A stretch of 20,000 nucleotides of DNA from an uncultured virus (IMG/VR IMGVR_UViG_3300047539_000147) (IMGVR_UViG_3300047539_000147); one strand, 5' to 3'; shown: positions 1,891 through 20,000, counted from the stretch's first letter. The notes: generated by a model from the sequence alone, not told the origin. Made by a program: numbers and translations.

Positions 1891-3947
1891 TACTTGAGGT
1901 CTTCCGCGATTGAGCCAATCCCCACGTAACACCATGACAGCCTGCCATTTATGGTCCTCTGGCGCTTCTCAACTGTTGGCCGCAACTGGGCGATGGCGCG
2001 GCCGAGGGCCGTCTTGCTTACGGTTGGCCGGCCTTTCGCCACGCAGTCCTGGTTGTAGTCCTGCCAAAGCCGGTCGGCGGGGATCACGCATCGGGTTCGA
2101 GCACCGTATTGCGGTCGAGCCACACGGCGACGGGATCAGTCGTTTGCCGGAATTCGTCCATGGCGCGCCGTATGGATTCGCTCTCACTGAGCCCGTGGCC
2201 GCGGATCGCTTTGAGGGCTTCGAGGGCCTTGTTCAACACGCCGCTGAGTTCGGTGGGATCGGCCAACATCGCGTCCAACTGGTCGCGAGGGAGTGTGCCC
2301 GGATCGCCCGCGTGAAATGTTCGCTCGAAGGGAACGACCACCCACCGGCGGAAGAACGCCGACGATGCGTCCTGGCTCTTGGGCGGGTGGTTGGCCGAAA
2401 AGATCAGCCGCGCGAACGGCACGAATTCGAAGGACTCCTCGAACTTCCGCTCGGCCAGCAGGGCATCGCCGCCGGTGATCGCCTTGAAGATCGACGTGCT
2501 GGAAAGGTCCTCGCTGGGCAAGTCGGGGCAGATGTTCGCAAGTCTACCGACAAGGCGCGCGACCGAGAAGCGGTCGTTCTCCAGCCGGTGAAGACTGATG
2601 GCCGCCACATTCTGCCGGCCAATAAACGCCAGCACGGCACGCAGGTAGGTGGATTTTCCGTTCGCGCCGTCGCCCGTCAGCAGGACAGCCTTCTGAATCG
2701 AAGTATCCGGCGTCGCCAGCCATGCCGGGATCTCCCACGCGATGGCCTCCGAATCGCCGGGAAATACCTCGCCGATGAACTTGTCCCACAGCTGGACACC
2801 GCGCGCGGGTCGAACTTCACGGGCAAGCTGAACCGGCGATAGGAAATCGGGTGAGTGTGGTGAGAGCGCACGGGTGTTGACGTCCAGCAGGCCATTCAGC
2901 ACGTTGACGACATCCACCTTGGGCCGTTCCCACAGCCGCGGGGCATCGACCTCGATGTATTTCACCACCTCCTCGGCCTTGTGGCTGCTCCATTTTGAGG
3001 ACAGCCGCATGCGCTCCAGAAGCTGTTTCACCTGCTGACGAACAAAGGGGGCGCCATCCGAGTGGTAGTTGCCGCCGCGGAAGATGTACAGCCGCCCGCC
3101 GACGTCCTGGGCAAATCGGTGCCGACCTGAGATCAGTTCGGCAATCTGGTAAACGCTGATCTCGTCATCGTCTGCGGGTTTCTCGAAGTCGGCGGCTTCC
3201 ACCAACTCCCAGACTTTCTCCGGGCCCACCTTCGCCAGCAGGTCGTCGATTCCTTTTCCCTGAGCGATGTCCCAGGTGATGAACGCAACCTCCGCGCCGC
3301 GGGTTCGCAACTCTCTCGCCAAGAGGCTTCTCGCGACTTCAACCTGCTCGTTTTTTTCCGCATCCGCGTCAAAAGCGATGATCACGCGGCGGCCTTCCCA
3401 AACAACGATGTCGAGGTCGGGGATCACGCCTTTGACGTCGCGCCGGTCGCCGTTCGGCCCGGTCGTCTTGCCTACCGTGCCACGCCAGTTCCAAACGCCT
3501 CCCAACCCGATCGGCAAGAATCGGGGTGCGATTGAGTCGTGATTGGCGAGACGCCACAGCGCGAGGGTCTTGAATTCGCCCTCGGTCACGATCACCGGTG
3601 TAGCAACCGCCTTCACCAAGTCCAGGGAAATGCCTGGCACGAAGTAGATCATGTTCCTTCGGCCCGGCGGCGACAAATACTTCCCGCGCTCCCTTGGTTT
3701 GCCGTCCTTGTACTCTATTTCGGGGTGGTCGCGGCGCAGGCGCCACTCACGAATGCGGGATTCACCCGGCAGGAAGTATGGGATCGCCAGTCCCTCATAC
3801 GAAGCATGATCCTGCCGGCCAACGAGGGAACGCCCCGTGCCGGAATCGACGCGCCGGATTTTGGCTGCTGCGGCAAGTTCGCGGTCAATCCATCGCCCCG
3901 CGAGACTCGCGTAGTCCGCATCCGTGAGTGCGGTCCGGTTCCCTCAT
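1890..3947 (-). CDS. Phage/plasmid P4-family primase-helicase (DUF3854-like TOPRIM + D5_N + SF3 helicase + C-terminal winged helix), with apparent frameshifts
   Basis: TOPRIM-type VIVTEGEFKTLAL...IIAFDAD. Walker A LLTGDGANGKST. SF3 motifs FKAITGGD, LIFSANHPP, AFFRRWVVVPF. The frame stays open upstream of 3676 to about 3943. The C-terminus continues in ORF 1890..2123 (VIPADRLWQDY...TALGRAI). Compensating shifts near 2790-2825. Confidence 0.88.
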
Positions 3948-4490
3948 TCACTGGTGGAGGTCCGTTCGCTGTCGCATGCATGATCACGCCCCGACGGGGA
4001 TAAGCCCGCCTCTGTGAACGCTGCCCGGAGCCGCCAGATGGCGCGATAGACGGTCGCGCGGGAAACACCGAGGCATTGGGTGGTCTCTATGGCCGAGTGT
4101 CCGATCAAGCAAAGCGCCACGTTCCGGTCGAACGGGGACAGGCCTGCCAAGACCCGAGAGACATCCGCCCGTAGGTCGGTGAGGATGTTCGGCGCTGCCA
4201 GCCCGAGGAGATTCTCAATCGGCTCTTCCCGGAATTGGCCGGACCGCTCCGAGCGCATCGCGCGCACCAGCGATGTCATCCTGTTGGCGACAACTCGTTC
4301 CGAGAACGTGCGCCAACTCCCGCGCCGCGGATCATATGCTTGGCGTTTCCGCCACAGTTCAAGGAGAGCTTCCTGTTCCAGGTCGCGGCGGGAGTCGGTC
4401 GGCAGCCCATACAAGGTCACTATCGTTGCCGCGCGCACGGCGGCAAGACGACTCGTGCGGAAAGGACTGCTCGAAAACGCTGTCAACCAC
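3944..4490 (-). CDS. Sigma-70/ECF-like RNA polymerase sigma factor-like protein
   Basis: Region-2-like RRDLEQEALLELWRKRQAYDPRRGSWRTFSERVVANR and region-4 HTH LSPFDRNVALCLIGHSAIETTQCLGVSRATVYRAI. Start uncertain (TTG 4486, or GTG 4490 with a frameshift). Confidence 0.8.
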
Positions 4491-4833
4491 AGCGGCCTCC
4501 GTTGGCGTTCGGGCGGTGCTCGATTTCCATGGAAAACGGGAGGCCGTGCCGCAATTCGAGACAGCGAATTTCGCCCGCGTCTACGGCGCGCACGTACTCG
4601 AAGAACTCCGCCATCTGGGTTTTCAACTCGAAGTCCCCGAGAGGAGGCGTGTTCCCCGCCGTGTCCACGGAACCGAACTTGACGCCGCGCACTGTTGTGG
4701 GCCAGGGATCAAGTACCAGCTCACCGCGTTCGATCCGCAGAGACTCAAACCGGCCAAAACCAACATCATGCATCTCGTGCAGGAACCGGCGTTCGGACGC
4801 TGACAGGTCGTGCGTCGAAGTAGGTCTGTTCAT
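4483..4833 (-). CDS. Hypothetical protein (116 aa) preceding the sigma-like gene
   Basis: ATG 4833 preceded by GAGGTGG. MNRPTSTHDLSASERRFLHEMHDVGFGRFESLRIERGELVLDP...LELRHGLPFSMEIE. Stop overlaps the next gene's start. Confidence 0.75.
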   Translation of the reverse strand: MNRPTSTHDLSASERRFLHEMHDVGFGRFESLRIERGELVLDPWPTTVRGVKFGSVDTAGNTPPLGDFELKTQMAEFFEYVRAVDAGEIRCLELRHGLPFSMEIEHRPNANGGRCG

Positions 4834-5003
4834 CGCACCACCTCTTGCGGAGCCGGACTGAGAGCCTTGTTCTCGGCAAACCAGGCGACGAGGTCGCAAC
4901 GCCCCTGGGCGTCCTGCGCCCGCTTGTAACACGGGCGCAGCCGCGATCCGCGTTCGACGCCCGGAAGCGTGTTGTTTTTCTTGTAGCGCCGTTCCCGTTC
5001 CAC
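4830..5003 (-). CDS. Possible 57-aa hypothetical protein
   Basis: GTG 5003 to TGA 4830 (MERERRYKKNNTLPG...QEVVR). Its stop forms an ATGA overlap with the next gene. No recognisable motif. Confidence 0.3.
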   Translation of the reverse strand: MERERRYKKNNTLPGVERGSRLRPCYKRAQDAQGRCDLVAWFAENKALSPAPQEVVR

Positions 5004-5044: not shown

Positions 5045-5136
5045 GGACGGCGGCTGGACGCTGGATGGGCTTACTAAGCGTGGCTGAATCGAGCCAACTG
5101 GCGAGGAAATTTATTTCGCTGGACGTTCGCTGGACG
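5045..5136. promoter_or_regulatory. Two pairs of 11-bp-periodic direct repeats (core GGACG) upstream of the replication operon; candidate operator/activator sites
   Basis: Perfect tandem TTCGCTGGACG at 5115-5125 and 5126-5136. GGACG at 5045-5049 and 5056-5060 (GCTGGACG 5053-5060). GCTGGATG 5060-5067. Confidence 0.5.
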
Positions 5137-5776
5137 CAAGTTCCTGTATGACGCCCTTCACGTCCTGGAGCCTATACAGGTACTTTGGCTCCCTGGGACG
5201 GCGATCATCCTGCTTCTTCCAGCCGTCCAGTTTGTGCTCCCGATACCTGTCCAGTCTCTTACGCAGCGCCTCCCTGCCGACGCTGAAGGATTCAGCAAGG
5301 CGGACATGGGTGTACCACCCTTGCTCGTCGAGCGTAACAATCGACGCGCTCGATGCAGAGGCATCGCGGAGGCCGGCATCTCCAGAACCATCCCTCAGAT
5401 TCGAGACCTCCTGCCACTTCTCGCCGCGTCGGTAGGCCGTGATGATCTGGATCGTCCTATCCGTGAGCGGACGATCACAACTCGTGCATCGGTATTCGTC
5501 GTCTTCATCCAGCGCTTCCTGGTATTCCGACCGAAGCGCCGCCATTTGACAGTACGGGCACTCGATCATTTCAACGCGGCGGAGCACTCCCTCCTGCGCG
5601 AACATATCGAGGGCCGAGCGCATCTGATTCGGATCGATGTTCAGGAAGCTGGCCAGGTCATCAGGTCGGATAACCTCCGCCGTTCCCATCGCCCTCAATT
5701 GGGAATCGAGTTGCTCGAAGACACTCGCGAGGTCCGGGTGTTGTTCAGCTAAGCGCGCGCACTCTGTGAAGAACAT
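5111..5776 (-). CDS. Hypothetical protein: winged-helix-like N-terminus, C4 zinc ribbon, linker, C-terminal HTH-like domain
   Basis: 221-aa intact ORF with GAGG before the ATG. IRPDDLASFLNIDPNQMRSALDMFAQEGVLRR (wHTH-like), CPYC...CTSC, and WYTHVRLAESFSVGREALRKRLDRYR (HTH-like). Confidence 0.8.
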   Translation of the reverse strand: MFFTECARLAEQHPDLASVFEQLDSQLRAMGTAEVIRPDDLASFLNIDPNQMRSALDMFAQEGVLRRVEMIECPYCQMAALRSEYQEALDEDDEYRCTSCDRPLTDRTIQIITAYRRGEKWQEVSNLRDGSGDAGLRDASASSASIVTLDEQGWYTHVRLAESFSVGREALRKRLDRYREHKLDGWKKQDDRRPREPKYLYRLQDVKGVIQELASSERPAK

Positions 5777-6803
5777 ACCTCACCACGTCCTCGGTGTTCG
5801 GCGTTGGAAAGTTGACGCGCGACTTCGCGCCCACGATGATCACGTGGACGTCGCCCGTCAGGGGGTTGGTGGCAGGCCCGGTTTCTTGACCGCCGCCAGC
5901 CAGTAGAAGTTGCCTAGGTGGCCGACGCTGTTCTTCCGCACGCTATCCATCGCATCATCGATGAACGCCTCGCCGAGCACCGAGGTCCCGTGGGCTCGGG
6001 CTGCGTGCCGAGACCCGCCTGCCTCGCAGCGACCGATAGTCGATTCCGTGAGAACGCGCCTCGGCCTGACCATTCTTCTCGATCTCGTGAAGCTTGGCGG
6101 ATCACCGGACGGAGATCGACTGCACCGAACTGCTTGATGTCGAGCCATGGCTTGACGAGCTGAAAGAACTGCTCAGCGAGTTCTCGTAGTCTCCGTCCTC
6201 TTGTAGCTGGGTAATCTGGAGCATCGCGACGTTAGCGTTCAAGTCCCACTCGAAGGCCGCGAGCGTGCGCGTCAGGTGGTGCATGTAGGCCTTGAGGGTA
6301 ATCCTCTCGCCGCTTTCTGTTTCCTTCTCTTCGTCGTGCTCAGGCGTTCGCTCGGTGTATTCCCGCTTCTCAACGGCCGTGACGCGCAACCTTCCATCCG
6401 CATGCGTGACGGACGACAGCGTGAGCTTCTCCGGGAGGATTAACGGAAGCCTGGCGTTGAAGAGCTTTCCGAGACGGTGTTGCTTCAGGAGACCCACACG
6501 TGATCGGGGTCTTTCCACGCCTGTACATCGTTCCGAGGACCGCTGGTAGAGGAAAACATGCTGTTTCCCCCACGGGGCCACGGAGTCGAGGAAATCCACC
6601 AGCTGCTCGTATGTGAGGTCGCCCTCATCGAGAGCCTCTTGAATCCTCTCGCGCAGGTCCTCCTTCGTGCCGGACTTGGGTAGTTCGACCTCCTTCAGGA
6701 AATCCTGAATGTGCGACTTCCTGAGGGCTAACACGAAATCGATCAGCGCCTGTTGTTCTTCGGCACTATAGTCAGGCGGACCGAGCAGTTTAATCGATTC
6801 CAT
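5745..6803 (-). CDS. Hypothetical protein (~350 aa) with N-terminal SAP-like DNA-binding motif; several apparent frameshifts
   Basis: ATG 6803. LRKSHIQDFLKEVELPKSGTKEDLRERIQEAL fits the SAP consensus. Protein-like sequence continues across shifts (LAEQFFQLVKPWLDI / KLHEIEKNGQAEARSHGIDY / SVLGEAFIDDAMDSV..GNFYWL / GDVHVIIVGAKSRVNFPTPNTEDVVRYVLHRVRALS-stop at 5745) and overlaps the next gene by 32 bp. Confidence 0.7.
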
Positions 6804-7379
6804 AACCCGTCCCGTCACAGTGCTGGTTGAACAGCGACCGCTTTTCCTGGAAACGAATCCGCCGGGATACCAGGCCACGCTTCGCGGTGGCGAAGCGAGG
6901 AAAGAATGGTCGAGGAACATCAACCTCTTGGCCGATAGGCGGCCTCGTTGCTGAAATCAGCGAACGACTTCGCGCACGGCTGGCACATGCGTGGGCATGA
7001 CCCGACCGCCAGCAGTATTCAGGCTGATTAACAGCGCGATTTCTGGATTCGCTCGGGGGTGCACAAGACTCCCTCAGCGGTTTGGCCAACGACTGCTGCG
7101 CCACAAGCCTCGGGCTGTAGTGATCTGGCATATAAATCCAGCCCCCTTCGCAAGAGAGATCCACGCTGAATTCGGAATGCCCGATCTGGCCCGAGCCTCC
7201 CCGTCCAACGGGTACAAGGGCTCTCTTTGATTCATGGTACCAAACAACAGGATGCACTGTAATTGTTTTACCTCCTGTCCGGATGCCGCATTTCGGGCGT
7301 GCCGACGCCAAGTGAAGCGAATCGCAAGACTTGGGAGGGCGATACGAGATAGAATCAGCCATTGGAGCTCATCTAGACG

Positions 7380-9910
7380 ATGGCGCGCGCACCGAAGAAG
7401 ACCACATCCGAAAAAAAGCCGATCGAGCAGTACGAGCACAAGGGCAAGAAGCGGCTGAACAATCCGCCTGTCGGCCTGGTGACGCCGGAGACGGACAACG
7501 AGGAGCCGAAGAAGACGTATCGCTACGACCCTCACCTGGACCCTCAATTGATCTGGGCCGGCAAGAATGAGCGCACGTCGTTTGAAGTGCCGTCGATTTC
7601 GCTGCACGTCCACGAGCGTATCGACCCGCGCACGATTGTCGAGGCAGTCAAGAGGAAAAACGGCGGCCCGCAAATGTCGCTGTTTCAGAATCCCGCCGAA
7701 AACCCTCCCCTCCGCGAGGCGGTCGAGTTTTATAAACACAAGCACAATTGGTCAAACAGGCTGATCGCGGGCGACAGCTTGCTGGTGATGAACTCCCTGC
7801 TGGAAAAGGAGGGAATGGCGGGGCAGGTGCAAATGGTGTACTTCGACCCGCCGTACGGAATTACATACGGGTCCAACTTTCAGCCGTTTGTCCGGAGTAA
7901 AGAGGTCAAAGACAAGGACGAGGATCTGACCGCAGAGCCGGAGATGGTCAAGGCCTTCCGTGATACCTGGGAACTCGGTCTGCACTCGTATCTGACGTAC
8001 CTGCGGGACCGGCTCCGCTTAGCCCACGAACTATTGTCGGATTCTGGTTCGGTCTTCGTACAGATAAGCACAGAGAATCTCGAATACGTATCCCTGATTC
8101 TCGACGAGATTTTTAAACCAACTAACAAGGTGGAGTTGATTTCTTTCAGAAAAAAGACAATGCCACTTGGGGGTACTCTGCTGGAGGGCAACTGCGACTA
8201 CCTGCTGTGGTACGCAAAAGACAAATCACTAGTGAAGTATAGGAAGGTGTTTCAACCAAGCCTTGTCGAGGGAGACTCGCACTGGAACTACGTTGAACTC
8301 AAGGACGGTGTGCGGCGCCAACTCACGCGAGAAGAGATTAATAATCACAGTCTGCTTCCGCCTGGAAGCGATGTGTACCAGTTGATTGGCCTTTACCCGA
8401 CCGGCACTTTTGACACAGGAATCTACGATTTCAAACTGGATGGAGTGACTTATAAGCTGCCGCCCGGCAAGTGTTGGAAGACCCCAATCGAAAGCATGCG
8501 GCGGCTGGCGGCGGCTCGGCGTCTACAACCTTATGATGCCGGCAAAACGCTTCGCTATGTTTTGAAGCATTCAGATTACCCGGTGACCCCGCTCGGCAAT
8601 GTCTGGCAGGACACATCGGCTCCTCCCGACAAGCGATATGTCGTTCAGACCTCTAACATCGTCATTCAGCGGTGCTTGCTGATGACTACGGACCCCGGCG
8701 ACCTCGTAATTGACCCGACTTGCGGAGGTGGCACAACAGCTTTCGTTGCCGAGCAGTGGGGGAGGAGGTGGGTTACCTGCGATACGTCGCGCGTTTCGGT
8801 TGCAATCGCGAGGGAGCGGCTTATGGCGGCTGTCTTCGAATACTACGAATTGGCGCACGCAGACGAAGGAGTGAGTAGCGGCTTCAAATACAGGTCGGCG
8901 GCTCACACTACTCTGAAATCAATTGCCAACAATGAGCCACCAGGACAGGAAATCCTCTATGACGATCCCGTTCGAGACAAGAAGAGGGTTAGGGTAACTG
9001 GGCCATTCACCGTCGAAGCCGTCCCCGCACCCGTTGTTCGCTCCCTCGATGAAGCAGACGCGAGCATTGATCCCATGCCAGCCGATGCCTCGGTGGCCCG
9101 TACTGGCGCAACCGCGCGTGACCGGGACTGGCGGGACGAGTTGCTGCGCACTGGCATCCGGGGCAGATCTGGTCAGACTATCGAGTTCACCCGCGTCGAG
9201 CCTTTGCCGGCGACCCGCTGGCTCCATGCCGACGCTGAGACCAAAGAAGGACTTGCCGCAGCGCGTCGTGGTTTCATTCGGTCCCGAGCACGCGCCCATG
9301 GAGCAGCGCCAAGTCGAACTGGCCATTGAAGAAGCCGGGAAGCTGGTGCCGAGGCCGAAGATGATCGTCTTCGCCGCGTTCCAATTCGACCCGGAAGCGG
9401 CGAAGGACATCGACGAACTGAATTGGCCGGGAGTGACGCTGCTCAAGGCGCAGATGAACGCGGACCTGCTCACGGAAGACCTGAAGAAGAAGCGCGCCAG
9501 CAACGAGAGCTTCTGGCTCATCGGCCAGCCGGACATCGAGGTCCAACCCATCGGCGATGGTGAGGATAAGGGCAAGTATCGGATCACGGTCAATGGCTTC
9601 GATTACTACAACACCAAGAACGGCAAGATCGATTCCGGCGGCACCGAGAAGATCGCCATGTGGATGCTCGATCCCGACTACGATGGCCGCAGCCTCTTCC
9701 CTCGCCAGGTGTTCTTTCCCAATGGCCGGCGAGGATGATGGCTGGGCGAAGCTGGCCAAGAACCTGCGGGCTGAGATCGATCCAGATCTGATCGAGGCGT
9801 ACCGCGGGACAACATCGCTGCCGTTCGCTGCCGGCGCAAACAAGCGCGCCGCTGTGAAGATCATCGATGACCGGGGCATCGAGAGCCTCCGGATTGTAGA
9901 CCTGGAGTAA
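7380..9910 (+). CDS. mod: Type III restriction-modification methyltransferase subunit (beta-class N6-adenine MTase), two apparent +1 frameshifts (~9250, ~9720)
   Basis: NRLIAGDSLLVMNSLL, catalytic YFDPPYG, SAM-binding VIDPTCGGGTT, RVTGPFTVEAVP. C-terminus continues in ORFs 9034..9738 and 9557..9910 (KIIDDRGIESL). Directly upstream of res. Confidence 0.93.
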
Positions 9911-9913
9911 TTG

Positions 9914-12900
9914 ATGCCGTCCGGCACAATCGACCAACTCATCGTCAACTCGCCCTACAGGGAGCCAGAGCAGCACTGGAGCTACGAGCGCGAGTCACGC
10001 TCATTCACGCTGAAACCCGGACGCAGGCCGGCGGGCTACGTGACGGCGACACCTGGCGCGAAGACCTTCGACGATCCAGGCATCTTTCGCGAACTGCCCC
10101 TGGTGAATCAAATCCGGCCGCGCGTGAAGGCATGGCGGGAGGCAGACCACCCAGGTGTCTCCGGCGTCACCAAGAAGCTGCTTTCGCACTGGCACGATGT
10201 CGAGCAGCGGAACGGGCGGCGCTTCTTTTTCTGCCAGCTTGAAGCTATGGAGACCCTGGTCTGGCTGACTGAGGCGGCGGCGTCGGAGCGCGTCGGCATC
10301 AATATCCCCGGCGACGGCGGGACCTTCACCAGGATCTGCACCAAGATGGCCACCGGCTCTGGCAAGACCATCGTGATGTCGATGGTGGTAGCCTGGCACG
10401 TTCTCAACAAGGTTGCTTACCCGCAGGATAAACGCTTCTCAAAGAACGTCTTCATTGTCGCGCCGGGCTTGACCGTAAAGAGCCGTCTTGGAGTGCTCGT
10501 GCCAGGCTCTGCGGACAACTACTACGACCTGTTCAACATTGTGCCCATGGGCCTGCACGACCAGATGCGGCAGGGCAAGGTAATGATCCGTAACTGGCAC
10601 ACGCTGATGCCGCTCGATCCGGATGCCGGGCCCAAAGTGATTAGAAAAGGTCCGGAGAGCGATGAAGCGTTCACCAGGCGCACCATGGAGGACTTGGCCA
10701 GCGCTCAGAATCTGCTCGTCATAAATGATGAAGCTCACCACGCCTGGCGCGTCCCGCCAAAGCTGTCAGCCCAGGATTTCGGAAAGCAGGAATTGGAGGA
10801 GGCCACGCTGTGGATCGGAGGCCTGGACCGCATCCATAAGACGCGCGGTATCCTTTCCTGCTATGACCTGACCGCCACGCCGTTCGCGCCCACGGGAAAG
10901 AAGAGCGACGAGGAGACCTTGTTCGGTTGGATTGCCAGCGATTTCGGTCTGAATGATGCGATTGAATCGGGTTTGGTAAAGACGCCACGTGTCGTGGTCC
11001 GTGATGATGGGACGCTGACGAAGGATTACAAATCGCGCCTTTACCACATCTACATGGACGACGAGGTTCGCGATGACCTCAACCGCAAAGCGGAGCCACA
11101 CGAACCGCTGCCTGACCTTGTCCAGAACGCCTACTACCTGCTCGGCAAGGATTGGCTGGAAACCTCGAAGCGCTGGTCGGAGGCGGGGTTCAAGGTGCCG
11201 CCGGTGATGATCACCGTGGCGAACCGGACGGAAACTTCGTCACGTATCAAATACGCATTTGACCGCGGCAAGATTCGTATCGATGAATTGTGCGTGCCGG
11301 AGAAGACGCTGCAGATCGACTCAAGGGTCCTGGACAAAGCGGAGGCCCGCGAAGAGGCGCCCGAGATCGCAACAGACATTCGCAGAACCCGCCGAGGAGG
11401 AGGACAACGGCCAGCCCGCTGCAAAGGTATCGAAAAAGGACCAATTCGAACTGCTGCGGCGTATCGTGGGTAGCGTCGGCCAAGCGGGTCAGCCCGGCGA
11501 GCAGATCCAGAATGTGATCTCGGTCGGCATGCTTTCTGAGGGCTGGGACGCGAAAACCGTAACGCACATCATGGGGCTGCGCGCGTTTACGAGCCAACTA
11601 TTGTGCGAGCAGGTGGTGGGGCGCGGATTGCGGCGAACGTCCTACGACGTGAATCCCGAGACCGGTTTGTTCGAGCCGGAATACGTCAACATCTTTGGCG
11701 TACCGTTCACCTTCCTGCCGCATGAGGGTGGCGAGGGCGCGCCGCCACCGCCGCCGCCTCCGAAGACGGAGATCAAGCCCCTGTCGGAGCGGGTCGCGTT
11801 CGAGCTCACGTGGCCGAACATCGTGCGCATCGATCACGAGTTCCGGCCGAAGCTCACGCTCAACACGGCTCTGGTGAAACCGCTGCTCATCGATGCCGCC
11901 GAAACACGGACTATCGCCGAGCTGGCACCTATCGTCGAGGGCAAACCAGAGATCCGAATGGTGAGCGAGATCAACCTGCAAGAGTTGGGGCAGAAGTTCC
12001 GGATGCAGCGCATCATTTTCGAGACGGCGCGCGACATCTTCGACCAGATGCGGCCCACCTGGAAGGGCAGCCGAGAAGCCCTGCTTGCGCAGTTGATTCG
12101 GCTGGTGGAGCGATTCCTCGCGAGTGGCAAGATTGACATCACGCCGCCCCTGTTTACCCAGGACCCATTGCGGCGGCGCATTGTGCTCACGCTCAACATG
12201 AATCGCATCGTGCAGCACATTTGGGAAGCGATCCGATTCGAGAACACCCAAGCACTGGCGTTGGTATTCGACACGGAGCATCCGATCCGGAGCACGGGCG
12301 ACATGCGTTCGTGGTACACGGGCCGGCCATGCGAAATGACATCGCGGTCCCACATCAACTTCTGCGTGTACGACAGCACCTGGGAGGCATCGGAATCGTA
12401 CGTATTCGACAAGAACCCGAACGTGTCGGCGTGGGTGAAGAACGACCATCTTGGCTTCGACGTGCTGTACGTGTTCAAGGGCGTCGTCAAGAAATATCGC
12501 CCGGACTTTTTGGTCCGGTTGAACGCGGGAACCATGCTCGTGCTCGAGGTGAAAGGCCAGGACTCACCCGAGAACCGCACCAAGCGGGAATTCCTGGCCG
12601 AGTGGGTACGTGCCGTCAACGAAAATGGCGGGTTCGGGCGATGGGAGTCGGACGTTTCATTCCACGTCAAGGACATCGAGGGCATTCTTGCCCGCCACTC
12701 ATCCGCATCCGTGGTGATCGGCCCAGGCAAATCGGCGTCGATTGAAGCTCTCCAACGGCTATCCGCCCACCTTTCCATTTCGAATCAGGACATTGCCCGC
12801 CTGCTTCACGCGTCCGCCGAAATGATCGTGCATTGGGAGTCGGGCGAGACTGTGATGCCGCCTGAAATGGAGGTGGCAGTTACGGCTGCGGACACTGCGC

Positions 12901-13061
12901 TGCGGCGGATTCTTGCGATCTTCCGGCCCGAGCGACTTCGGGATGTCATCCGGCAGAGAGTGGAGCTATTCCATGGACGCTCCGCCCTTGATTTGATTTT
13001 GGAGGGCCGCATAGAGGAAGTAGCAGACCTCTATGTCGCGGCATTCGCGTATCAGGGATGA
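9914..13061 (+). CDS. res: Type III restriction endonuclease subunit (SF2 helicase + PD-(D/E)XK nuclease) with C-terminal Xre-HTH/MbcA-ParS-like antitoxin extension; apparent frameshift ~11380
   Basis: FFCQLEA, Walker A KMATGSGKT, INDEAHH, LTATP, VGMLSEGWD, QVVGRGLRR, nuclease YRPDFLV...LEVKG. After DIEGILARHS the frame continues ~116 aa: LSISNQDIARLLHASAEMIVHWESG (Xre HTH) and LFHGRSALDLILEGRIEEVADL (antitoxin C-terminal motif). Confidence 0.9.
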
Positions 13062-13600
13062 AGGCGACTGTTTACCACAATCATCTGCCGATCTACCGGG
13101 TCGTGAGGCGCGGCTGGCCCGATCCCATCGACACGGCGTTCTCGCAATCTCCCAAGGTGGACAACCGATGGAATACGGTTGATTTTCCGGCGCTCTACTG
13201 TTGCTGCTCGGAGGCCGTTGCGAGCGCCATTGTGAGAGACATCTTTCGCATCACCGGAGCCACCCTCGCTGATCTCCTCGAAACCGCTTATCCGCAACTG
13301 GTAGAGATCCAGTGGCAGGGGGAACCCGTCGACATGACCGCCGAATCCGCGATTGTGTTGGCTGGCTTTTCGCCTGACTACCCCGATGGCGCGAATCACA
13401 GCCAGACTCAAATCGTTGCCATCAGTTGGCACGCCGTCGGTGCCTCAGGCGTTTTGTGTCGAAGTGCCTCGATGGCTCGCCTGGGGTTCAACGGTTGGAG
13501 CGGTGACCATGCGGCGTGGAGCGAGCTTGCCATATACACGGAGAACTGCGCTACGAAGCCGAACGTGCTGAATCGCCGGGATGACCTGGGCTGGCTGTAG
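13058..13600 (+). CDS. RES-domain protein (putative NAD+-consuming toxin of the Xre-RES/MbcT/ParT class)
   Basis: 180 aa, ATGA overlap with the upstream gene. IYRVVR, DNRWN, PALYC, TQIVA..W, GVLCRSA, ELAIY follow the order of RES-family motifs. Confidence 0.85.
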   Translation: MKATVYHNHLPIYRVVRRGWPDPIDTAFSQSPKVDNRWNTVDFPALYCCCSEAVASAIVRDIFRITGATLADLLETAYPQLVEIQWQGEPVDMTAESAIVLAGFSPDYPDGANHSQTQIVAISWHAVGASGVLCRSASMARLGFNGWSGDHAAWSELAIYTENCATKPNVLNRRDDLGWL

Positions 13601-14057
13601 TCGCAGCCCCTTGTCCTGTTTCCATTCTGCCTCGCGGAGCCGATACAGGGCGAGCTTTCTTCAAATCCATCCATGTTCGCCTTTGATTGTCCCAGAGCAC
13701 GATCTTTGTGAGCGCTCGGACTGCTGTTTCGGCGGTAGCGGGCGTTCTGATCGGCAGCCCCTCCCCACTCAAGATCTCCTCTTGAATCTCTGGCGCGAGG
13801 AGCAGGAGATTCATAATCTGCGTGAGCCGGGCGCGCGACACGTACCCCAACCGAGCGATGTCCGCGTAGTCGTGCACTTCGCCGCGGTTGACCATGTCCT
13901 GGAACTTGACGGCGAGAGCCATCAATCGAGCGATTCGCGGGATGCGTGGCGGGTCGGGCACCTTGGGCACAGCCGGGCTGCGGTGCCAGCCACCCTTGCG
14001 GCCCTTCGCCGGTACGATGGTGATTTCGACCTGAAGTGTCCCGTCGTCGATACTCAT
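13551..14057 (-). CDS. Serine recombinase-associated HTH-like accessory protein
   Basis: RIARLMALAVKFQDMVNRGEVHDYADIARLGYVSRARLTQIMNLLLLAPEIQEEIL...WDNQRRTW. ATGA-coupled to the recombinase. The last ~30 aa look non-conserved and overlap the RES gene. Confidence 0.8.
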   Translation of the reverse strand: MSIDDGTLQVEITIVPAKGRKGGWHRSPAVPKVPDPPRIPRIARLMALAVKFQDMVNRGEVHDYADIARLGYVSRARLTQIMNLLLLAPEIQEEILSGEGLPIRTPATAETAVRALTKIVLWDNQRRTWMDLKKARPVSAPRGRMETGQGAATTASPGHPGDSARSAS

Positions 14058-15592
14058 CGGACTGCCTCCTTCTGAACCAGTTCCTTCACGCCGGCCGATT
14101 TGAAGCTCACCGTGACCTTGCCAGTGCGGCCGTCGTAGCCGACCTTCTCCACCAGTTGGCGCAGGAGGTTCCGCTGCTCATCAAGGTTCATGGCCTTCCA
14201 CACGTCCTCGAAGGACTCCATCGTGCGGCGCAACTCCTTCTCGTCGATCCGCTGCTTCTCACGCCGCAGAATCTCCTTGCGAAGCTCCTCTGCGCGCGTT
14301 TCCCCTGCTGCGAGTTGCTCCCGGATCTCGGCCAACCGGGCAGCCTCCGGGTTTCGAATCCGTGCGATCTGCGACTTCAGATTCTTGACGCGACCGTTCG
14401 TCGTGTTCAGTTCCTCGCGCAAACCGGTAATCATCTCCGCGAGCTGCTGCCGCGCCAAGCGCGCGGTCTCAGCAAGCACGTCTGGCTGCACGCCGACGCG
14501 CCGTATACTCTCGACAACCGCGTCCTCAACGGACGGCGCGGACACTGCGCGCGAGGTGCAGTAGCCTTCGAGTTTCTGCTGAGACCGGTAGCAGACGTAG
14601 TAGCGGTAGCGCCTCTCCTTGTTGGCCGAGTACGTCGAGTACATGCCGGAGCCGCAGCAGGAGCAGTAGATCAGCCCACGCAGCAGAGCATCGAATTTGA
14701 CGCGATGGGCGTTGCCCGGTGTCCACGCGTTCTCTTTGAGGCGCTTCTGGGCCATGTCGAAGGTCTGCTGGTCGATAACGGCTTCGTGCTCTCCGGGGAA
14801 GATTTCATCGCCCACCTTCACCTGCCCCGTGTAGAGGACGTTGCCGAGCAGTTTGTAGATGTGGCACCGGCGTAGCGCGCTGCCGCCGTAGAGCTTTCCG
14901 TCCTGTGTGGTCCATTGCTTGTTGCGCCACCCCAGCTTGTCGAATCGTTGGACAATCTCCAGAACCGGCGTTCCTTCCAGATAGAGGCGGAACATCTCTC
15001 GGATGCGCTCAGCCTCCTCGGGATTGACGGCCAACTTCCCGGCGCGCGAGTCGAGGTCGTAGCCCAGGAGGATGTGCCCACCGGTCCACTTGCCCTTCTT
15101 CCGCGCCGCCACCTGCTTGTCGCGCGTGCGCTCCGAAATGATCTCGCGCTCGAACTGGGCGAAGGATAGCAGGATATTCAGCGTCAGGCGGCCCAGTGAA
15201 GAGTTCGTGTTGAACTGCTGCGTGACGGAGACGAAGCAGACGCCGCGCTTCTCGAACAACTCCATCATCTTGGAGAAGTCGATCAGTGAACGGCTCAGGC
15301 GATCAACCTTGTAGACGACTACGCAGTCGATCTTGCCGGCTTCGATATCGGCCAGCAGTTGTTTCACGCCGGGCCGTTCGATGTTCGCGCCTGTGTATCC
15401 GCCGTCGCTGTACTGGGTGGGCACCAGGGTCCAGCCGTCGTGCTTCTGGCTGAGGATGTACGCCTCGGCCGCCTCGCGCTGGGCGTCGAGCGAGTTGAAT
15501 TCCTGGTTCAGGCCCTCCTCCGTCGACTTCCGCGTGTAGATCGCGCATCGGACGGGTTTTGGCGCGGTCGTGCCGTTACTGGTGGCTGCCAT
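14054..15592 (-). CDS. Large serine recombinase (resolvase + recombinase + zinc-ribbon domains)
   Basis: RCAIYTRKS (catalytic Ser), SLDAQR, YSDGGYTG, VVVYKVDRLSRS, FAQFEREIISERT, LGY, GEHEAVID, LLRGLIYCSCCG...YRYYVC, then coiled coil. ATG 15592 with GGAGG RBS. Confidence 0.96.
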   Translation of the reverse strand: MAATSNGTTAPKPVRCAIYTRKSTEEGLNQEFNSLDAQREAAEAYILSQKHDGWTLVPTQYSDGGYTGANIERPGVKQLLADIEAGKIDCVVVYKVDRLSRSLIDFSKMMELFEKRGVCFVSVTQQFNTNSSLGRLTLNILLSFAQFEREIISERTRDKQVAARKKGKWTGGHILLGYDLDSRAGKLAVNPEEAERIREMFRLYLEGTPVLEIVQRFDKLGWRNKQWTTQDGKLYGGSALRRCHIYKLLGNVLYTGQVKVGDEIFPGEHEAVIDQQTFDMAQKRLKENAWTPGNAHRVKFDALLRGLIYCSCCGSGMYSTYSANKERRYRYYVCYRSQQKLEGYCTSRAVSAPSVEDAVVESIRRVGVQPDVLAETARLARQQLAEMITGLREELNTTNGRVKNLKSQIARIRNPEAARLAEIREQLAAGETRAEELRKEILRREKQRIDEKELRRTMESFEDVWKAMNLDEQRNLLRQLVEKVGYDGRTGKVTVSFKSAGVKELVQKEAVR

Positions 15593-16109
15593 GTTTCCTC
15601 CCCGGCTTGCCGCCAAGCCCGAAGAACGCGAACCCGTTCCACGGCGTGCCGGTAGCCTGGCGCACGGCGGAACTCAGGGAACGGTGGATCTGGCCACCGC
15701 ACTCGAAGCCGTCCTCCCGAACGCGAACGACGACATCCTTACCCCGGTAGCGTCGCACCAGTTCGGTGCCGGGCATCGGGAGCCGCGGGTCCTCGGTCGG
15801 CGCGACGCGCGTCTCAAGCGTGCGGCTCTCGTCCAGATCCACTTTCAAAAAGTTTTTGGGTGCCCGAATGCGGAGGTCAGCGTCGTCGGCGATCTCCAGT
15901 GCGCGGCGGCGCGCGCGTTCCGAGAGGCCGCCGTAAGCGTTCGCCTGCATGCGCCAGGCGATTCGCCGGAAGAGGAACTGTTTGTGATTCGACCGGCTCG
16001 ATTCGCTGAAGACATCACGGTACTTGTCCTTAAGCTGCCCGACGGTCATGTGGCGCAAGGCCTCGATCTCTTCCCGCAGGCCCGTTGATCTATTGGTCTC
16101 TGTTTTCAT
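15576..16109 (-). CDS. DUF2924 domain protein
   Basis: RRIAWRMQANAYGGLS, PMPGTELVRRYRG, SLSSAVRQATGTPWNGFAFFGL. Located directly upstream of a large serine recombinase, the usual position for this family. Confidence 0.9.
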   Translation of the reverse strand: MKTETNRSTGLREEIEALRHMTVGQLKDKYRDVFSESSRSNHKQFLFRRIAWRMQANAYGGLSERARRRALEIADDADLRIRAPKNFLKVDLDESRTLETRVAPTEDPRLPMPGTELVRRYRGKDVVVRVREDGFECGGQIHRSLSSAVRQATGTPWNGFAFFGLGGKPGRKHGSHQ

Positions 16110-17510: not shown

Positions 17511-17896
17511 ATGAACGAGTTAACCGTAGTTGACAGAGCAACGGAATGGCGGCGGATGAAGTCCCTGGTTTTGGACAGCGTCAGCTCGCCGATTACCAAA
17601 AGGGTCTACAACATGGCCCTGGACGAGTTCTTCTCCGATGGTACGACGCCAGGAGCCGCGGCCCGGCTTCACCAAAGCCACGCGTTAGCGCCTGGCGCGT
17701 ATCGCTGGAGGAGCGCAAGCTGGGGTCGTCGTCGATCATCGTCCGCATGTCGGCGATCCGCAAGCTGGCGGTGGAGGCGACCGACAACGGCCTGCTGGCG
17801 CCCGAACTGGCCGCCGGCATCCAGCGCGTGAAGAGTGCAAAGTCCATCGGCGTGCGCATGCCGGCAACTGGCTCTCGCTCAGAAGCAAGCCCATGA
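17511..17896 (+). pseudogene. N-terminal fragment of a tyrosine recombinase/integrase (core-binding domain only)
   Basis: GAGG RBS; LVLDSVSSPITKRVYNMALDEF / SAWRVSLEERKLGSSSIIVRMSAIRKLAVEATDNGLL...RVKSAKSIGVR / GNWLS across frameshifts. No catalytic R-H-R-Y domain follows. Confidence 0.75.
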
Positions 17897-18004
17897 GAGC
17901 ACACGCTGGTCGCATTCGCCGATCTGCTTCTGTATGAAGTCGTGAGGGACAACGGCCTGCCTGATTCAAACAGCATAGCCATGCTATATTGAAGAACACT
18001 CCGG

Positions 18005-18340
18005 CTACCTGGCGAAAGTGTTACTGAGCGACCCGAGCGCGTTCGCGGATCCACTGAGAGTGATATCGTAGCTGGCGTATGTGGTGGCCGCCGTCGGTCC
18101 GCTCGACGTGTTGGTGCTGTCCAGCCGGAAGCCAATGGCAGTCAAGCTGCTGCCAATCGGCACCGCGGAAAACTGCGACGCTGCGAGCTGAAATTGAAAT
18201 GTGATGGCGGCGTCCGAGAACGGGCCGTTCACATAGCTGGGGCTCTCTGTGCTCGTGTAGGCATTTGGGACAACTATGGTCCCGGCGGTCGCCGGGAGGA
18301 TTGTGGAAATTGCAAGCAAAGCGATTCGTAATTTCGACAA
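18005..18340 (-). pseudogene. Secreted protein, probably truncated (PEP-CTERM-like N-terminal region)
   Basis: GGGGAGG RBS and TTG 18340. Signal peptide MSKLRIALLAISTILPATA followed by a Ser/Thr-rich beta-type domain (FQFQLAASQF, LTAIGFRLD). Stops at 111 aa with no sorting signal. Confidence 0.55.
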
Positions 18341-18620: not shown

Positions 18621-18656
18621 AAAGAGAAAGCCCGCCGCGGCGAGTGCCGGGCGGGC
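18621..18656 (-). terminator. Intrinsic terminator downstream of the DUF3489 gene
   Basis: Plus strand AAAGAGAAA-GCCCGCC(G)CGGC-GAGT-GCCG-GGCGGGC: an 11-bp GC stem with one bulge, followed on the minus strand by TTTCTCTTT, 20 bp after the stop at 18677. Confidence 0.7.
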
Positions 18657-18676
18657 CGAAGGGCGGATGTCCGAAA

Positions 18677-19168
18677 TTAATTGATGCGGTAAGTGCGCTC
18701 ACCTCCAACGGGCTTGAAGGATTCCACGGCGTATCCGGCCTTTTTCATCGCGCCCGCCATGAACCCGCGCACCGTGTGCTTCTGCCATCCCATGCTCTGC
18801 ATAATCTCCGAGAGCGTGGCGCCGTTCTTGCGTTGCAGCATGGCCACCACCTGCGCCGTCTTGCTGCCTGGGCGTGCGGCGGGGATCTCGGGCACCGGAG
18901 CAGACTTCTTGGCCGTGGGCGCTTTCTTGGCGGTGGTGGCCTTCTTGCCGGCCTTCCCCTTGGCGGGCGCGCCCTGGGCCGCCCGTGCGCCACCCTTGGC
19001 CGGGCGGGCGGCTTGGGCCTTGGCAGGCGGCGCCGGCTGCGCCAGCGCGCCGAGTCCCTGAATGCGCTCCCAGATGCGGCGCGCGGCGGCCTTGTGGTCC
19101 TGGAACTTCTTGACGGACTGTACGCCCGGCAGGCTGCTCCAGATCGCGACCAGCCGCTTGGCCGGCCA
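18677..19168 (-). pseudogene. DUF3489 domain protein, 5'-truncated
   Basis: WPAKRLVAIWSSLPG...Ala/Lys-rich linker...RPGSKTAQVVAMLQRKNGATLSEIMQSMGWQKHTVRGFMAG...RTYRI. Upstream of 19168 the ORF is only the antisense of the MTase fragment. Confidence 0.85.
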
Positions 19169-19977
19169 TCGACGATGCCGAATTGTTGCGATTGCTTGCC
19201 GAAACAAGCTGCCCCCGAGGGATGCACCGACCCCGATGCGGCGCCCCCAGTACCACCGCTGCCCGTCTCCCTGCCCGGCGATCGGTGGATCTTGGGAGAG
19301 CATCGCCTGCTCTGTGGGGATGCCGCCCAGCGGGCAGACCTGGACACCGTGCTGGCCGGCGAACCATCCCGCATGGTGTTCACGGACCCGCCTTACAATG
19401 TCGCCTATGAGGGCAAGACGAGCCGCAAACTGCGCCTCGCAAACGATGCCCTGGGCGGCCAGTTCCAGGAATTCCTGCGGCAGGCCTGCACTCAACTGAT
19501 GGAAGTTTGCCGCGGCGCCATCTACATTTGCATGTCCTCGGCGGAGTTGCACACCCTGCACCAAGCCTTCACCGCTGCCGGCGGGCACTGGTCCACGTTC
19601 CTGATCTGGGGCAAGAACCATTTCACGCTGGGCCGCGCGGACTATCAGCGCCAATACGAACCGATTCTGTACGGCTGGCCCCAGGGAGCGGAGCACTACT
19701 GGTGCGGTGCCCGCGACCAGAGCGACTTGTGGTGCGTGGCGCGTCCGGTGGCCAATCGAGAGCACCCCACCATGAAGCCGGTGGAGTTGGTGGAACGTGC
19801 CGTACAAAACAGCAGCCAAGTGGGAGACATAGTGCTGGACCCGTTCGCGGGTTCGGGGACCACGCTGATTGCCTGCGAACGCCTGAAACGGCTGCGCGCC
19901 TGATCGAGTTGGATGCCCGCTACGCGGATGTGATCTGCCAGCGATGGGAACAGTTTTGCGGGCGGCCGGCGGTTTAG
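19159..19977 (+). pseudogene. Phage-type N6-adenine DNA methyltransferase, 5'-truncated (ParB domain missing), frameshift near 19895
   Basis: IDDAELLRLLAE / PEGCTDPDAAP...GDRWILGEHRLLCGD, MVFTDPPYNV, HPTMKPVELV, VLDPFAGSGTTLIACE / ARLIELDARYADVICQRW-stop at 19977. No start codon or RBS context for the conserved part. Confidence 0.85.
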
Positions 19978-20000
19978 TACTCTGCGTTGATACCACTGCT

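Follow-up and report, generated by a model that had tools for sequence, protein, structure and literature searches.

A type III restriction subunit with a C-terminal MbcA-type antitoxin domain, coupled to a putative RES toxin, in peat-soil bacteria

The analysed sequence, a stretch of 20,000 nucleotides catalogued as an uncultured virus (IMGVR_UViG_3300047539_000147; hereafter the window), carries a type III restriction-modification (R-M) gene pair, mod and res, followed by a gene for a RES-domain protein. The features of the locus and its surroundings are listed below.

2084..4932, minus strand: element core beyond a cargo slot, with a D5-type primase-helicase, a sigma-70-like gene and a small gene (Pfam; same order in the sister locus L060)
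7110..7270, no strand: non-coding segment, left edge of the cargo slot (blastn match to L060 7041-7269 at 74%, also to the related locus L001; L060 carries other cargo)
7380..9910, plus strand: type III mod, N6-adenine methyltransferase (Pfam N6_N4_Mtase; PADLOC MTase_III, E=1e-129), in three frames here (two one-base insertions)
9914..12701, plus strand: Res body, helicase/ATPase and PD-(D/E)xK nuclease of the BPTD_3080 family (NCBIfam NF046055, Pfam ResIII), with one extra base at ~11379-11382
12702..12749, plus strand: in-frame linker of 16 codons, without a Shine-Dalgarno (SD) sequence before GTG 12711/12714; other tail fusions have a similar linker before the tail
12750..13061, plus strand: Xre/MbcA-type antitoxin domain, helix-turn-helix (HTH) and toxin-binding C-terminus, fused to Res (profile MbcA 6fkg_C, E=0.01; model of a family member; co-fold)
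13058..13600, plus strand: RES-domain putative toxin, 180 aa (Pfam RES, E=1.6e-10, 41.6 bits, cut-off 23.2; profile MbcT, E=5e-5)
13551..14057, minus strand: small conserved element gene, right edge of the cargo slot (98% in L001 and L010; adjoins the recombinase in 6/6 loci of the viral collection)
14054..15616, minus strand: large serine recombinase (Pfam Resolvase, Recombinase, Zn_ribbon_recom)
15576..16109, minus strand: DUF2924 protein of the element (Pfam DUF2924)

The res frame (11259-13061) passes the end of the nuclease domain (..DIEGILARHS), continues as a tail of 116 residues and stops at TGA 13059-13061, which overlaps the RES start codon ATG 13058 (ATGA). GTG 12711 and GTG 12714 lie in the res frame while TGA 12715 does not. 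This arrangement, described in a first-pass annotation of the window, was confirmed by indel-free contigs, by L001, in which the fusion is intact at 90% DNA identity, and by the database protein P0034. The window assembly contains three one-base insertions, two in mod (~9248-9251, ~9715-9722) and one in res (~11379-11382), and thereby splits mod over three frames and res over two. Contigs from four public metagenome runs of peat and permafrost, which belong to four studies and the best of which may be the source of the window itself, have one base fewer at each of the three breaks. They cover the junction bins and contain no indel after 11382; one of them (run X2, record 15) extends over 11863-12970 and differs from the window by 4 substitutions and no gap. 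Alignment of the window with L001 produced single-base gaps only at 9248, 9722 and 11382, and P0034 equals the two res frames of the window, across the break, at 489+559 = 1048 of 1048 residues. As other assemblies do not contain the extra bases and P0034 matches throughout, the three breaks are errors or private changes of the window assembly, and the Res-antitoxin fusion is genuine. The presence of these three errors in mod and res might suggest that the fusion, too, was created by an indel, at 12690-12714, an outcome that the first-pass annotation had itself named as fatal to its reading. Such an artefact, to which practically no weight can be given, is already refuted by the independent assemblies: the junction is free of indels in all four runs, in the gap-free spanning contig, in L001 and in six full-length proteins of 1048 aa. 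Elsewhere the window is likewise indel-rich, and an integrase-like gene at ~17.5-18.1 kb (17511-18135) also appears to be split across frames.

The order of mod and res, and the SF2 helicase and PD-(D/E)xK motifs of Res, are those of type III R-M systems and are intact in L001. There, mod encodes an uninterrupted protein of 852 aa with a central target-recognition region different from that of the window, a divergence as would be expected of a working system. The match of Res to NF046055 is full-length and above the cut-off (1097 bits, residues 7-928 of P0019); a literature search on the name BPTD_3080 returned no paper. Walker A, DEAH, motif VI and the nuclease motifs were intact in 9/9 Res alleles checked. 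With a dN/dS of 0.06-0.08 relative to L001, Res is under strong purifying selection with all its helicase and nuclease motifs kept. The pair thus shares with NF046055 relatives the mod-res order, the helicase/nuclease motifs and a variable Mod recognition region. It differs in the length of Res: in 118 of the 119 relatives measured, the protein stops 23-68 residues past the last conserved G-x-W motif, whereas the fused Res runs 141 residues beyond it. Conservation of the fused protein is lowest in the linker, which is of low complexity (81-94% versus 94-98% in Res).

The first-pass annotation had read the tail as an Xre HTH followed by an MbcA/ParS-like toxin-binding end. Pfam searches with the tail alone remained below cut-off (Xre-like-HTH, E=0.015) or gave no match (Xre_MbcA_ParS_C), and the identification therefore relies on profile and fold matches. 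A confident model of P0023, a member of the family with 55% identity in the tail, had as its top four fold matches NatR, MbcA, VPA0769 and the Pseudomonas putida Xre antitoxin, with Z scores of 13.2, 11.1, 9.9 and 6.8, respectively. On this basis the tail is an MbcA/NatR-type antitoxin.

Assignment of the downstream gene to RES toxins of the MbcT kind was supported: MbcT was its best PDB profile match, while the NCBIfam ParT model stayed below its cut-off. The profiles of RES and tail hence match two proteins, MbcT and MbcA, that are partners in a single complex. R14, R37 and Y47 of RES are invariant in 18/18 rows; R37 and Y47 align to MbcT R47 and Y58, and R14 fits MbcT R27 by position only, within one residue and outside the aligned stretch. 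E69 of MbcT has no counterpart. According to the MbcT study, R27, R47 and Y58 are essential for toxicity and E69 is partly dispensable, E69A keeping limited activity; MbcA is described there as neutralising the toxin with its last ten residues (PMC6436930), which would leave its N-terminus free for fusion. The RES protein of the window would be toxic through NAD+ consumption.

When tail and RES were co-folded, as the first-pass annotation had proposed, the score was 0.90, compared with 0.00 for the best of three controls; runs agreed in 100% of contacts at a pLDDT of 93. The mark applied is reached by 116/157 solved pairs and 2/215 mismatched pairs. Contacts join tail residues 100-110 to RES residues 14-17 and 47-49, including R14 and Y47, and the antitoxin C-terminus is thus predicted to sit in the RES pocket. 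Because similar complexes have already been solved, the score may reflect likeness rather than binding. Values of dN/dS were 0.23 for RES and 0.13-0.38 for the tail, the upper value (0.38, versus L001) resting on 15 changes, and both parts remain under purifying selection. In 5/6 pairs of fused alleles the toxin-binding end was at least as conserved as the HTH, which is the faster-changing half.

In these respects the locus corresponds to RES-Xre type II toxin-antitoxin (TA) systems (MbcT-MbcA, NatT-NatR, P. putida RES-Xre, V. parahaemolyticus VPA0770-VPA0769): an Xre/MbcA-fold antitoxin, recognised by profile and fold, lies directly upstream of RES, the key toxin residues are shared, and the same C-terminal plug of the toxin pocket is predicted. 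It differs in that the antitoxin forms the C-terminal domain of a restriction subunit of 1048 aa, in the missing counterpart of MbcT E69 and in the regulatory DNA. Rather than being small, stand-alone and autoregulating, the antitoxin is joined to Res, and the internal GTG codons lack an SD sequence. Pairing with the anti-SD amounts to -5.6 and -5.9 kcal/mol for mod and res versus +1.9 kcal/mol before GTG 12711/12714, although a scan for SD sequences cannot exclude an internal start at these codons. GTG 12714 is not conserved; GTG 12711 is kept in L001. In the closest unfused relatives a TATACT box lies 8 bases 5' of the ATG, whereas the junction has no such box. No sigma-70 promoter was found in window positions 6900-13800.

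A conserved palindrome, TGTGCCAC-N4-GTGGCACA, was found just upstream of unfused antitoxin genes in 11/68 loci (e.g., L005:7930-7949) and is likely the operator of the RES-Xre family, so the HTH of the family probably binds DNA. It is conceivable on these grounds that the tail serves mainly as a fused, controller-like repressor of the mod-res promoter. This is highly improbable: the operator had 0 matches in the window at 3 mismatches and is absent also from L001, a test weakened by its absence from the two closest unfused relatives, and it is the HTH that changes faster. Locus L005 additionally contains two tandem RES genes behind one antitoxin (L005:8333-9770).

The mod-res-tail-RES block occupies the defence-cargo slot of a DUF2924-serine-recombinase integrative element. 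In a sister element, L060, whose recombinase is 90% identical, this slot includes genes for an LmuB-like ATPase and a methyltransferase, and other sister elements contain BREX, or Hma and Septu. The L060 cargo (L060:10927-15880) consists of the LmuB-like ATPase gene, two further genes and a type II methyltransferase gene, possibly a Lamassu/ABC-three-component variant. Divergent from mod, two cargo genes in the window (5111-6923, minus strand) code for a SAP-domain protein, the end of which looks truncated or frameshifted, and a zinc-ribbon/HTH protein. Two ParB/N6-N4 methyltransferase-type genes and DUF3489 flank the element (1-933, 18644-19996), which suggests that related elements are nested or arranged in tandem.

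The fused protein heads a 90%-identity cluster of 23 members, of which 15 are listed. These comprise six full-length fusions, three partial fusions, three unfused Res proteins (934-936 aa) and three short tail fragments. The fusion is thus present in 9/15 listed members, in four distinct alleles whose Res bodies are 95-97% identical; fused and unfused Res are not separated on the tree. No frameshift or stop restores a separate antitoxin in any of the nine fused sequences. Between the window and L001, dS was 0.18-0.43 in Res and 0.08-0.10 in tail and RES. This excess in Res indicates that the join survived allele exchange; P0040 and P0019 are 97% identical in Res and 82% in the tail. Parts have thus been exchanged between alleles while the Res-tail join was kept.

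Beyond this cluster the fusion did not turn up in the collections searched. Among the best 120 of 3777 matched Res clusters it is the only one to cover the tail, and only 1/22 tail loci has a Res fusion. In a related order, 15 of 401 genomes contained 17 Res places, none of them fused. RES relatives occurred in 16/401 genomes, never with a Res-fused antitoxin; in the 10 close ones the antitoxin is invariably upstream and in no case part of a Res. A phylum-wide sample searched with the tail profile yielded 1/401 genomes, a weak search in which 12 candidates were scored per genome. The viral collection contained two unfused Res but no relative of RES or of the tail, and the plasmid collection had no tail match. 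The match L022 was false, being another protein. Within these searches the fusion is confined to one lineage; in relatives the antitoxin is as a rule a protein of its own or follows another N-domain. Other genomes with the same fusion, which the first-pass annotation had proposed to look for, do exist in the form of L001 and the four alleles, albeit within one 90%-identity cluster that includes unfused Res; as fused and separate states both occur, homologues do not always encode the antitoxin separately. The fusion is found in peat-soil bacteria, and the genomes with the closest unfused pairs suggest that the host is probably an acidobacterium.

Most of the antitoxin family, 97 of 146 members with a near-full domain, has a common N-terminal domain of ~150 aa; 18/146 have fewer than 40 residues before the antitoxin domain. 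The tail of the window belongs to a clade of 13 rows (support 100/99) that lacks this N-domain. Instead, the clade is carried by (i) Res; (ii) a Ser/Thr kinase; (iii) an ECF sigma factor; (iv) a membrane protein; (v) a Mod stub; (vi) a short leader. TIR fusions occur in more distant branches. The Mod stub (P0003) joins the 28 first residues of Mod (68% identical) to the tail, as expected if mod-res had been deleted in frame with the antitoxin keeping the mod start. RES follows the sigma factor fusion (L003). In the membrane protein fusion (L002) the tail lacks its last residues, and no RES is present in the 140 bases available downstream. The kinase has no clear DFG motif, and the sigma factor is just under its model cut-off (124.9 versus 126.15), with small deletions; these two proteins (P0020, P0022) are possible decoys or decaying carriers. 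Two short clade proteins, P0001 and P0002, may be stand-alone antitoxins. The simplest account of this pattern would be that the clade has no evident start of its own and borrows one from its upstream neighbour, which a C-terminal plug would render harmless to the antitoxin. An insertion of cargo between a TA promoter and the antitoxin was not supported, as Res and sigma fusions have no common upstream sequence.

The ~150-aa N-domain of the wider family (P0023, P0024, L021:9557-10333, L025, L026, L029) is helical, folds confidently and is possibly a sensor domain. Its fold search gave weak sigma-region-2-like matches (Z 4.8-6.4). A HEPN-like identity was dismissed: the motif is absent from the 63-row consensus, and the Atlas returned only unnamed matches below 0.8. 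Another, unrelated N-terminal fusion is represented by a protein of 440 aa (L059:4205-5527), the C-terminus of which resembles the antitoxin and the gene of which immediately precedes a RES gene. Five loci (L011, L012, L013, L018, L019) have orphan antitoxin homologues without a RES match in the locus, followed by a conserved gene on the opposite strand.

PrrC-EcoprrI and Ronin resemble the proposed arrangement, a toxic effector kept silent by a restriction complex as a possible second line of defence. They rely on type I complexes that sequester an anticodon nuclease or a membrane peptide through non-covalent contact, and their triggering has been shown. The present locus instead places a type II antitoxin, distinct from the effector, in one polypeptide with a type III Res, and any triggering is putative. 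The effector is genetically tied to the R-M locus, both covalently and by translational coupling. The near-constant association with an R-M system expected of a guardian's effector family does not apply to RES, judging from the 401 genomes and the 22 tail loci. EcoR22I is likewise type III and linked to cell death upon anti-restriction by Ocr, and has no known death domain (10.1101/2023.04.06.535777), whereas a distinct, predicted NAD+ toxin is encoded here. In CapRel an antitoxin is also joined to another domain in one chain; that chain fuses toxin and antitoxin, while here the antitoxin sits on a third protein and the toxin is separate.

The candidate toxin-guarded R-M system of the first-pass annotation stands as regards the fusion and its defence-cargo setting. 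In its strict form, a phage anti-restriction protein would bind or remodel Mod-Res, pull the tail from RES and cause abortive loss of NAD+. The covalent link is kept across four Res alleles despite the higher divergence of Res at silent sites, the slot has matches to defence systems in sister elements, and there are precedents in PrrC and PARIS (PMC12707154, 10.1101/2024.01.29.577857) as well as in Ronin and EcoR22I (10.1101/2023.04.06.535777). Yet such a dedicated guard is unlikely in view of its restriction to one lineage, of relatives with separate antitoxins and unfused Res in the same cluster, of a variable, low-complexity linker that makes a poor allosteric coupler, and of the attachment of the same tail clade to several unrelated proteins, two of them apparently degenerate. 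In a wider version, one MbcA-type antitoxin clade would have shed its own N-domain and become attached, time and again, to the C-terminal end of proteins of defence (type III Res) and signalling (kinase, ECF sigma), with TIR proteins as carriers in distant branches, each carrier being a guarded target or decoy that frees an NAD+-destroying toxin when phage degrades or remodels it. We consider this portable tripwire doubtful; if true, it would be a bacterial parallel to integrated decoys.

At the other extreme, a lost stop codon or recombination may simply have joined neighbours in a crowded slot, leaving Res and the TA pair independent, or the stable fusion may keep RES permanently off. A neutral passenger of this kind would explain the narrow distribution, the mixing of fused and unfused Res on the tree, the choice of abundant gene types as partners with a kinase and a sigma factor of doubtful integrity, and the truncated tail without RES in L002. 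It is nevertheless a minority option, as tail and RES are under purifying selection, the toxin-binding end is no less conserved than the HTH in most fused pairs, and in none of the nine fused sequences is the antitoxin split off by a frameshift or stop.

The reading to which we give a probability of about 0.5 is that a captured antitoxin without an evident start of its own ties silence of the toxin to synthesis and survival of Res, i.e., addiction plus a generic backup. An intact type III-like Mod-Res system would have captured, as the C-terminal domain of Res, an MbcA-type antitoxin from a clade that has lost the family N-domain and takes its start from whichever gene lies upstream. The free C-terminus of Res-tail is predicted to plug the NAD+ pocket of the co-translated RES, and the toxin would remain silent only if Res is translated to its last codon and survives. 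If the element were lost, res cut short or Res eliminated in the course of an infection, RES would be left free to consume NAD+. Addiction would keep the restriction module intact, and a generic second line of defence would be its by-product. The fusion in four alleles, the signs of selection, the predicted co-fold, the lack of SD sequences at the internal GTGs, the clade without N-domain and P0003 speak for addiction, with the absence of an internal start and release on loss of Res as presumed links. P0003 also counts against it by showing that restriction can be discarded, together with the three unfused Res alleles in the same cluster, as do the GTG 12711 kept in L001, the possibly stand-alone P0001 and P0002 and the missing E69 match. 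The large Res may, moreover, be more stable than a normal antitoxin. Because translation of RES is coupled to the stop of the fusion, a nonsense mutation in res would lower the production of new toxin as well, and addiction is thereby weakened unless RES outlives Res.

Searches of literature listings and abstracts revealed no description of a Res-antitoxin fusion, in agreement with the first-pass annotation. What seems new here is that an antitoxin is built covalently into a type III Res, and that one antitoxin clade has changed its N-terminal partner again and again; the parts themselves are of known kinds. Known R-M guardians hold their toxin non-covalently on type I complexes, whereas here gene fusion has made a standard TA pair part of a type III enzyme. 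Loss of Res should unleash the RES toxin, be it as an anti-virus tripwire or as the safeguard of a self-keeping gene block. Because fused and unfused alleles of the same enzyme both occur in nature, they can readily be compared to ask whether TA pairs protect neighbouring defence genes through addiction or through the sensing of an attack, and the fusion illustrates how a guard system could evolve in a single step.
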